From assembly GCF_009931435.1 (NCBI RefSeq), contig NZ_CP043414.1: a DNA stretch of 64,000 nt. One strand, 5' to 3'. The position numbers are program-made. The DNA comes from Escherichia coli (GTDB taxonomy: Bacteria; Pseudomonadota; Gammaproteobacteria; Enterobacterales; Enterobacteriaceae). Shown piece after piece: positions 33,301 through 36,300 of the stretch (its first letter is position 1; each line of letters begins with the position of its first letter).

Positions 33301-36300
33301 GATCTGTTCCTGAAGCGCCTTATACCAGGCGGCAATTTGCGCTTTAAGCGCGGCGGTTAATGCCATGAGAAAACCTGAAATACTGTATAAACAGCCAATA
33401 TTGTGGCATTTTTCGGTTTTCAGCGGTAATGGTTTTTCTGTTTCTGGAAAGCGGCTCGCAAACACGCCCTCACACAATATATTTGATTGAAAGTTCGACG
33501 GCACGGTGAGCGCCAGTCTTCAGGGCAGAAAACAGCAAGTGATACCTCATTTCGTGGTTACACTTGCCGCCGTCATCGCTTCGCAGGAACCGGTATTGCC
33601 CGCCCTGGCCTGAGCCAGGGCCATCAATGCCATTATCCTGTTGGGATCTTTACAGCCATGCGTCTGGCGTCCACTCGGATAAAACTTTAGAAAAACGATA
33701 TTGTGCGTAGCGGACCATATCACGATATAACGAACTTATACGCAGCTGGTTGGCCTCTTCATTAGACAGATTATTGAAATCAAGCAATACCGCTTTGTAT
33801 GTATTAAAAGTTTGACTGCTTATCATATTTTCATCTAAAGAGTGAGCTTTAGCCAATAAAGCAAATGCATAACGTTTTAAAATTTTTGACGCATCAGGAA
33901 TACCGTAAAAGACATTACTATGAGAAATATTTGCAAATACGGCAGACAGACAGAAAAATATTTTAGACTTATCACTTTCACTGGCCTCTTTGAGATCCAG
34001 CATCATTAATAGATTAGTGTAATGTTTTTCTTTCAAAGTATGCTGTTGCCATTGGTCTGAATCGGTCATCAAAGAGGAAAATAATGATTTAAATTCTGTC
34101 GGTTGATTATCCGATTCTGGCACAAAGTCTGTTTTTCGCATTATTGCTGACATAAATACATCACGAATATAACCTTTCAATCCAAGAGCATTGAGAATCA
34201 ATTGGTGTTTCTTATTTTTCTGCGCATATTCCCATCCTTTTGCAAATAAAGGAAATGCACGCGTACAAATCGTTTCTGGATCATCTCTGACAACTTCATG
34301 GGTATCCTGCAAAGATGGATAAATAGAGTAACTATTCCAGATAGTCTTTTTCTGAACATTTGGCTCGAGCATTGAGATTAACGCCTGGTGCGATAAACGC
34401 ATTACTCGCCCGGAGTTATCGGATGATAACAGGATATAACATTTATTATCTTTATCTAACAATCCTTGCAGCTGATTGAAATTCAACTTTATTTCTTCAG
34501 TAACGAATTGTTTTATTTCAGGTAATACCTGATAATTGTGATAAAGGTCAAATGCTAAGTTTTTCTCTTCAACACTTCTGTTTTCAAAAAGCAAATCAAT
34601 AAATTGAATAAATCTATAATTTTCAGAAACCATCAACTCTGGTCTCTTTAAAAAGAGAGCATGGAAAAAGTTAATTATTTCCGTATCGTTACTCAGATTT
34701 TTATTTCTGAAGTAGCACAGATACGTATCCAATGCGCGCATAACAAGTTCATGATCGCTATTAAGTGGGGATTTTAATAGTTTTGCTATTATGGACGATG
34801 GGAATGCTACCATGTCCCGCAGCGTGAAGAGTTCCATGCCATCAGTTAATTGCGTTAGCAAATCTTTTACTGTTTTTATGTTATCAGTATTATCATTGAA
34901 AGATTCGTCTGCCAGAGACTCTAGTTTTTCTATCATCCCCCCGATTACAAATATATCTTTTTCGCTCTCCACGTCATGATTAGACATATCATCGACGATA
35001 TCTTTAACTTTACTATCACTTTCATATAGTTTTTCTCTCACAATATTATTAGCGTTTACTGCAGAAGTCGCATCATAATAGGATGGCGGAATAATAACAG
35101 AGAATTCGTTAGTGAATATAGAATGATATGCAAGATTATCATCATTCAATTTCTCACCAACGTTAAGCGAATTAATATCCCTCAGAATATGCGTCTCAAT
35201 CTGACTGTCAAAAAGACTTTTAGAAAAACCACTACCTTCAGTCAGTTCAATTTTCATCCTGAGTATTTTATTTTTGAGGTCAGAAAATGTATTTACATAA
35301 GGAATAAAAACATCTGATGAATTAGAGTTATTTTTCTTTCCATTAATATTATCTATTCTGACGGTGATCCCTTTCTCATCACGATGAATTGCATTATTCA
35401 TATTTATAGAGATCACATTTTCATGTCTGGATTGCCCGGTTTTAATCGTCATATTGATATCATTTGCGCTGATCTCCGAAATCTCACTGACGAATTTTTT
35501 AAATGCATTATAGCGCTGGTGGCCAGCATTAAATTTGCCAAATGAAACATAATATGCGAAGTGTTCAAGGAAACCATGTAATTCCAGTAAATTAACCGGG
35601 TCAGAACCCTGCACCATATTTAATAACATCGTCGCATAACCATTGCATTTTGAACAATCCATACACCGCTCCTTTGCACATGAATGATCTGCGGATCATA
35701 AGCCTGGCAAAATAGGGAATCTTACAGAAATCGCTCATTTTTAACTTTTCGTACTGCAAACTCAGGATCAACCGGGTTATGAAAGTCTGCTGCTGTACGG
35801 ATCTAAACAGGCTGACAATCAATCTTTCTATCAATAAGCAGAAATGAGCGATTTTTGATAGTTAATTTAAATTATTTCATAGTAATACTTTCATAATCTA
35901 TAGCTTGCACATAATGATTACTTATTATTTTTATCAATTTTAATTTGACGTATTAAAGGAGTTAATATGCGTAATTTGTTTGAGCAGTGGCCATTATTTA
36001 AACCTAACACACCAGGCAACTCCAACTATTTCCCTGACAACTTATCCATTACAGATATGGTTTTCTGGTTTGACAATAATGCCAAAAAACTGCTAGATGT
36101 TATTAAAAAAACAAAGAACCATGAACAAAAGCAGATGTTCATTCAGCATTTAACATCAACCTTATATAATAATAAGGTATTAAACAACCCTTATCATTTA
36201 GAACCGCAAAAAATTTCTAATGAGCAAATAGCCTTACCAATAATTAATATTTTATATGATAATTCTGACGTATTTCATAAAGAAAGTATTTTGTTTTTTT

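Follow-up and report, generated by a model that had tools for sequence, protein, structure and literature searches.

The 20-bp sequence TATTGGCTGTTTATACAGTA upstream of dinG is, in our assessment with high confidence, the functional LexA operator of dinG(-ybiB), and this regulatory module lies intact beside the espX2 islet in the stretch of Escherichia coli DNA analysed here (64,000 nucleotides, hereafter the window). The gain of the espX2 islet left the dinG SOS module untouched and therefore allows the annotation and the regulon predictions of K-12 to be transferred to the present strain. The identity and position of the operator, its conservation and the junctions of the islet were computed from the sequences, and LexA binding and induction by DNA damage are taken from the literature. 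The features on which the argument depends are collected in Table 1.

Table 1. Features of the rhlE-dinG region, with positions in the window.
Feature	Position	Strand	Basis or remark
ybiB	30226..31188	-	ORF and annotation; directly downstream of dinG
dinG CDS, 716 aa	31216..33366	-	ORF from ATG; RefSeq annotation of matching loci
dinG LexA operator (SOS box), 5′-TATTGGCTGTTTATACAGTA-3′	33381..33400	-	Exact unique match, identical to the published operator
TGCCACAAT, inferred extended -10 (TGn + CACAAT)	33400..33408	-	Conservation; its final base opens the operator
61-bp dinG-upstream block	33401..33461	-	Common to all E. coli slot variants compared; ends at the left junction
Islet-specific spacer, espX2 stop to dinG promoter	33462..33649	-	Normal G+C; holds two hairpins
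Replacement segment ('island A')	33462..37756	.	4295 bp in the rhlE-dinG slot versus 737 bp in K-12
espX2, type III secretion effector, 670 aa	33650..35662	-	RefSeq annotation of matching loci
Orphan ORF, 561 aa, AT-rich	35967..37652	+	Divergent from espX2
rhlE	37758..39122	-	ORF; all other genomes align again from 37757

The plus strand of the operator reads TACTGTATAAACAGCCAATA, and its reverse complement, TATTGGCTGTTTATACAGTA, is the sense strand of dinG. The operator ends 14 nt upstream of the ATG (33366-33364, minus strand) of dinG, which encodes a DNA-repair helicase. With 2 mismatches allowed, this 20-mer had a single match in the 64-kb window and none in 100 dinucleotide-preserving shuffles (0/100); a chance match was ruled out by this uniqueness, by the 0 matches expected and by the conservation of the site across genera. 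When the site was compared with the consensus TACTG(TA)5CAGTA, and with its core CTG-N10-CAG, the dinG box failed at the left trimer, which is TTG instead of the CTG of the consensus, and it fitted in the right half, a canonical CAGTA, and in the 10-bp spacing. The initial annotation had proposed a non-canonical dinG operator that carries TTG where CTG is canonical, and this identification is correct because the published dinG box has the same sequence with the same TTG deviation: all 20 of 20 bases coincide with the published asymmetric operator. In the literature TATTGGCTGTTTATACAGTA is quoted as the SOS box of dinG known from experiment, TTG standing for CTG, on the authority of Lewis & Mount 1992 (the 'asymmetric dinG operator' of E. 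coli K-12); the TTG left trimer is thereby a documented exception for dinG among LexA operators. In addition, a dinG 25-mer has been tabulated among the SOS motifs found upstream of UV-induced genes (PMC3009722). The dinG operator of the window is thus real and already known. Concerning the transcription unit, ybiB is counted in the LexA-controlled dinG unit by the literature, and the literature on LexA control of ybiA offered no direct evidence, only a statement that places ybiA in the LexA-controlled dinG neighbourhood. A 762-aa version of dinG that starts at a GTG and extends to 33504 was discarded as an artefact of longest-ORF listing.

The strength of the operator was estimated with a heterology-index (HI) matrix that was rebuilt from the 16 E. 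coli SOS boxes which PMC3009722 lists besides that of dinG; this matrix is not the original Lewis matrix, and hence the HI values given here are approximate. Both strands of the window were scanned (127,962 positions). With the rebuilt matrix the dinG operator had an HI of 11.1-12.3, against a background mean of 36-40, and it therefore falls, within the approximation of the matrix, on the LexA side of the threshold of about 15 below which LexA sites are placed in the literature. It was the third-best LexA-like site of the window, outscored by a prophage site (5337-5356) and by the uvrB box (62652-62671), and by the same rebuilt matrix it was the weakest among the 17 published boxes. A T-to-C change at position 3 of the box would lower its HI by 3.5-4.2 on this matrix. 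In E. coli treated with ciprofloxacin the log2 fold change reported for the dinG mRNA is 1.0-1.7, compared with 3-4.5 for dinI and dinD, and such a modest induction, below that of dinI and dinD, fits a weak operator.

Further LexA-like sites were found in the same scan. The best one of the window, TACTGTATGTATATCCAGTT (5337-5356, HI about 3), is located 22 nt upstream of a 68-aa ORF (5108-5314, minus strand) that is assigned to phrog_698, of unknown function, and that lies between the gene of a phage transcriptional regulator (4811-5134) and that of a replication-origin nicking protein (5434-7458). With these phage-type neighbours the region looks like a prophage, and the 68-aa ORF may be a prophage gene under SOS control, perhaps a switch of the antirepressor type. 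At 62652-62671 the minus strand carries AACTGTTTTTTTATCCAGTA, the SOS box published for uvrB without any change, so that the window spans two chromosomal LexA operators and one prophage site. The 3′ end of dinG itself contains another LexA-like sequence, TACTGGATGCATTACCGGTA (31300-31319, HI about 11-12), which probably arose by chance, because one of its trimers is CGG/CCG rather than CAG/CTG.

In order to place the borders of the foreign segment, the window was compared with five E. coli loci that differ in the content of the rhlE-dinG slot, namely those of K-12 (ybiA), Eco-15 (a 5′-deleted ybiA fragment), KKa019 (a relE-type toxin-antitoxin), strain 133 (espX2 only) and E200086 (espX2 plus a second gene). 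All five match the window through 33461, with the exception of a SNP at 33424, which is their sole difference from the window within the 122-bp block 33340-33461. From 33462 onwards the genomes with ybiA, with the ybiA fragment and with relE diverge from the window, and the espX2 and two-gene genomes stay collinear with it. This anchored comparison of five genomes sets the left junction at 33461/33462, 61 bp beyond the operator edge at 33400. On the right side identity is back at 37757, a single base away from the stop codon of rhlE. The 122-bp block was found in 5421 of the 5426 complete E. coli genomes, with at least 99% identity in 4919 of them; strain 2013C-4282 alone among the genomes listed had it at 100%. 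The base at 33424, where the window has C on the plus strand and almost every other E. coli has G, belongs to the weak -35 region of the promoter proposed below.

The expectation of the initial annotation that a variable segment starts just beyond the SOS operator is borne out by these junctions, and the alignment to a ybiA-type genome that it had proposed as a check returned the short distance given above, and not a junction far from the operator. Its figure of ~130 bp for the distance from the operator to the AT-rich island, by contrast, fits neither the break in homology (61 bp) nor the break in composition (about 250 bp). Between about 33650 and 37700 the G+C content is 25-38%, compared with about 52% on either side, and it drops only near 33650, at the espX2 stop codon; the 188 bp between the junction and this stop codon are islet-specific and have a normal composition. 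Nor was the event a plain insertion, as the annotation had it, since 4295 bp stand in for the 737 bp of K-12, a stretch that contains ybiA together with the final 24 bp of its leader, a REP-like element and the terminator of rhlE. At 37700-37756 the K-12 rhlE terminator hairpin (ATGCCGGGCATAGCCCGGCAT) is lost, and another hairpin (AAGGGCAAAAG...CTTTTGCCCTT) is found directly after the rhlE stop.

The replacement segment carries two ORFs only, and no recombinase or mobility gene was found in it. Terminal repeats in direct or inverted orientation were sought at the islet, and only short AT-rich chance pairs turned up; a site-specific integration model is unsupported because terminal repeats are missing. 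Of the features by which classical islands are recognized, the segment shows a deviant G+C content and a presence/absence polymorphism (541/5426 genomes), and it does not show the combination of an integrase or transposase, a tRNA target and flanking direct repeats. The name of a replacement islet, located in an intergenic slot of variable content, therefore suits it better than that of a classical integrative island. The C-terminal domain of EspX2 is SopA/NleL-like (Pfam SopA_C, 53.2 bits against a cutoff of 25), and the protein matches PDB 3naw and SopA chains with E = 5e-14; with the NCBIfam model for HECT-type effectors it scored 84, below the cutoff of 500. From its sequence, the 670-aa product is predicted to be an EspX/SopA-NleL-like type III effector. 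The 561-aa ORF had no match in Pfam, NCBIfam, PHROGs or the PDB sequences, and no similarity to EspX2. Full-length, single-copy espX2 was detected in 541 of the 5426 E. coli genomes, and the 561-aa ORF is intact in 156 of these 541 islet-bearing genomes. The other 385, O157:H7 included, share a 1.49-kb deletion (about 35868-37354) with a 14-bp overlap at the joint. The espX2 allele of the window is 100% identical to that of RMDEC465, a carrier of the deletion, and its 561-aa ORF is 98.9% identical to that of E200086.

The position of espX2 bears on the question of readthrough. In the initial annotation it was the expression of the island gene that might be influenced by readthrough, but the direction is the reverse: espX2 lies upstream of dinG on the same strand, so that any readthrough would act on dinG(-ybiB). 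One can then imagine that the islet rewires dinG, with espX2 transcripts crossing the 283-bp spacer into the dinG promoter and providing an SOS-independent, virulence-linked input into dinG-ybiB, or else with operator-bound LexA acting as a roadblock to them. The co-directional arrangement, which differs from the divergent ybiA of K-12, makes this conceivable, and a strict intrinsic-terminator scan of 33250-33800 had no match, so that neither of the two hairpins of the spacer passed it. Against it, both hairpins stand between espX2 and dinG. Hairpin 1 (33602-33621) is GC-rich, with 8 bp and about -20 kcal/mol, and has no U-tract, and hairpin 2 (33533-33569) has a 9-bp core and about -21 kcal/mol and is followed by UUUUCU (33527-33532); the latter was missed by the strict scan because of its large loop, and it is a plausible candidate for the espX2 intrinsic terminator, judged from its predicted fold. 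In the O157-type allele hairpin 2 is one pair weaker. The minus-strand RNA of the spacer is predicted to be more stable than shuffled sequence (z = -2.7), and an Rfam scan of 33200-33900 returned no RNA family. Furthermore, AT-rich effector genes like espX2 are usually poorly expressed in the laboratory, which also speaks against a strong transcriptional input from this side. Hence we regard a rewired dinG, in all its variants taken together, as very unlikely, and an intact, LexA-controlled dinG module next to the islet as the better account. Some effect on the basal expression of dinG may nevertheless exist, since the sequence beyond about -65 is unlike that of K-12 and espX2 lies upstream in the same direction. 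The plus strand of 33401-33461 was also inspected for a retained ybiA promoter, and no convincing -35/-10 was seen there by eye or by scan; an orphan plus-strand promoter that fires antisense into espX2 would be speculation.

We then analyzed how the operator is embedded in the dinG promoter. Among 70 distinct dinG upstream sequences the TG and the CACAAT of a TGnCACAAT motif are near-invariant, 'n' being C, T or A, and a single isolate, labelled Pseudo-/Enterobacteriaceae, has CAAAAT in place of CACAAT. The operator adjoins this conserved motif, and a canonical sigma-70 promoter scan of 33250-33800 was negative there as elsewhere; no conserved -35 was seen across genera in the same 70 sequences. 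The assignment of TGnCACAAT as an extended -10 whose last base opens the operator rests on conservation, because the canonical scan was negative, and we infer from it that the dinG start site lies inside the left half of the box, where LexA, once bound, would keep RNA polymerase out. The LexA dimer spans both halves of an operator. On the dinG operator such a dimer would sit on CAGTA, a consensus half-site, and on TATTG, a weakened one; with the operator starting at the last base of the putative extended -10 (TGcCACAAT) and covering the likely start site, bound LexA would block RNA polymerase at the dinG promoter, and upon DNA damage the RecA-stimulated self-cleavage of LexA would relieve the block. 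The weak half-site would allow only a modest induction of dinG. The espX2 islet has replaced the ybiA segment from 61 bp upstream of the operator, and given that the promoter-operator module is intact, dinG is expected to be regulated as it is in K-12.

The conservation of the box was analyzed across genera with one genome per species, by looking for TG-N10-CAG at a fixed distance from ATGGCN YTN ACN GCN, a pattern that leaves position 3 of the box unconstrained. It matched 71 loci, in Escherichia, Salmonella, Citrobacter, Enterobacter, Kluyvera, Kosakonia, Phytobacter, Lelliottia and others. The remaining 19 bases of the box and the 14-nt spacing to the ATG are almost invariant in these 71 species genomes. 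Position 3 (window 33383) was G in 68, T in E. coli and E. albertii, A in E. whittamii and C in 0 of the 71, a tally that reflects very few independent substitutions and a search which, being tied to one spacing and to set N-terminal codons, passed over Klebsiella, Serratia and others. Among these 71 species genomes, then, the asymmetry of the dinG operator appears to be ancient and family-wide, with drift confined to position 3 and never to the consensus C. It could be argued that the block is conserved as promoter, discriminator and 5′-UTR, so that the off-consensus left half adds little and a single good half-site rules, given that position 3 drifts between G, T and A among genera while the flanking promoter bases are fixed, and that the left half shares its bases with the region of the inferred -10, the discriminator and the start site; we find this scarcely credible, because across genera neither the other four left-half bases nor the 10-bp distance to CAG vary, because dimeric LexA contacts both halves, and because the literature takes the whole asymmetric 20-mer as the LexA operator. 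The reading of the 20-mer as a complete, although weak, LexA operator is therefore retained.

The gap between rhlE and dinG was also compared in other lineages. In most other enterobacterial genera it is empty, with rhlE and its terminator directly abutting the dinG promoter, and among the genera compared ybiA was found in Escherichia only. Unrelated cassettes of about 4 kb occupy the gap in Citrobacter werkmanii (a Na/sulfate-type symporter, a lyase and a GntR regulator; locus L006, 1993-5890) and in Phytobacter massiliensis (PTS EIIC/B, a GH4 glycosidase and a GntR regulator; locus L020, 3301-7150), and some E. coli and E. whittamii carry a relE-type toxin-antitoxin there (locus L004, 1838-2559). 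Since the gap is empty in most genera and holds varied cargo in others, the reference with ybiA represents a derived state as well, one among several in a slot that recurrently takes up cargo and whose fixed edge is the dinG promoter-operator module. The rhlE-dinG gap can accordingly be seen as a slot used repeatedly for cargo in several enterobacterial genera, with its E. coli boundary about 60 bp upstream of the operator. A more far-reaching proposal combines three elements: that position 3 is selectively kept off-consensus, that the weakened LexA site and the extended -10 form a fixed anchor of ~50 bp for a cross-genus slot (ybiA, relE, espX2, sugar/organic-acid cassettes), and that the transcription of espX2 is coupled to the SOS control of dinG-ybiB. 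As a whole we consider this proposal doubtful.

When the locus is set beside known systems, the dinG operator of the window equals that of K-12 in all 20 bases and in its distance to the ATG, and the 122 bp around it differ from K-12 by the one SNP at 33424. Differences from K-12 appear only more than 61 bp upstream of the operator, where espX2 is co-directional with dinG in the window and ybiA is divergent in K-12. The dinG box of Salmonella has been placed 14 nt from the start codon, with an HI of 10.08, and the boxes of Salmonella and other Enterobacteriaceae share with the window 19 of 20 bases, the 14-nt position and the TGnCACAAT motif; they depart from it at position 3, where 68 of the 71 species genomes have a G (TAGTGG...), in contrast to the T of E. 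coli and E. albertii. On the side of the cargo, the espX2 islet in place of ybiA is an ordinary, already described arrangement. The espX2 locus of O157:H7 and other attaching-effacing strains occupies the same slot with the same left and right junctions, and its espX2 is 95-100% identical to that of the window; the O157-type copy has lost most of the 561-aa ORF by the 1.49-kb deletion, whereas in the window this ORF is intact.
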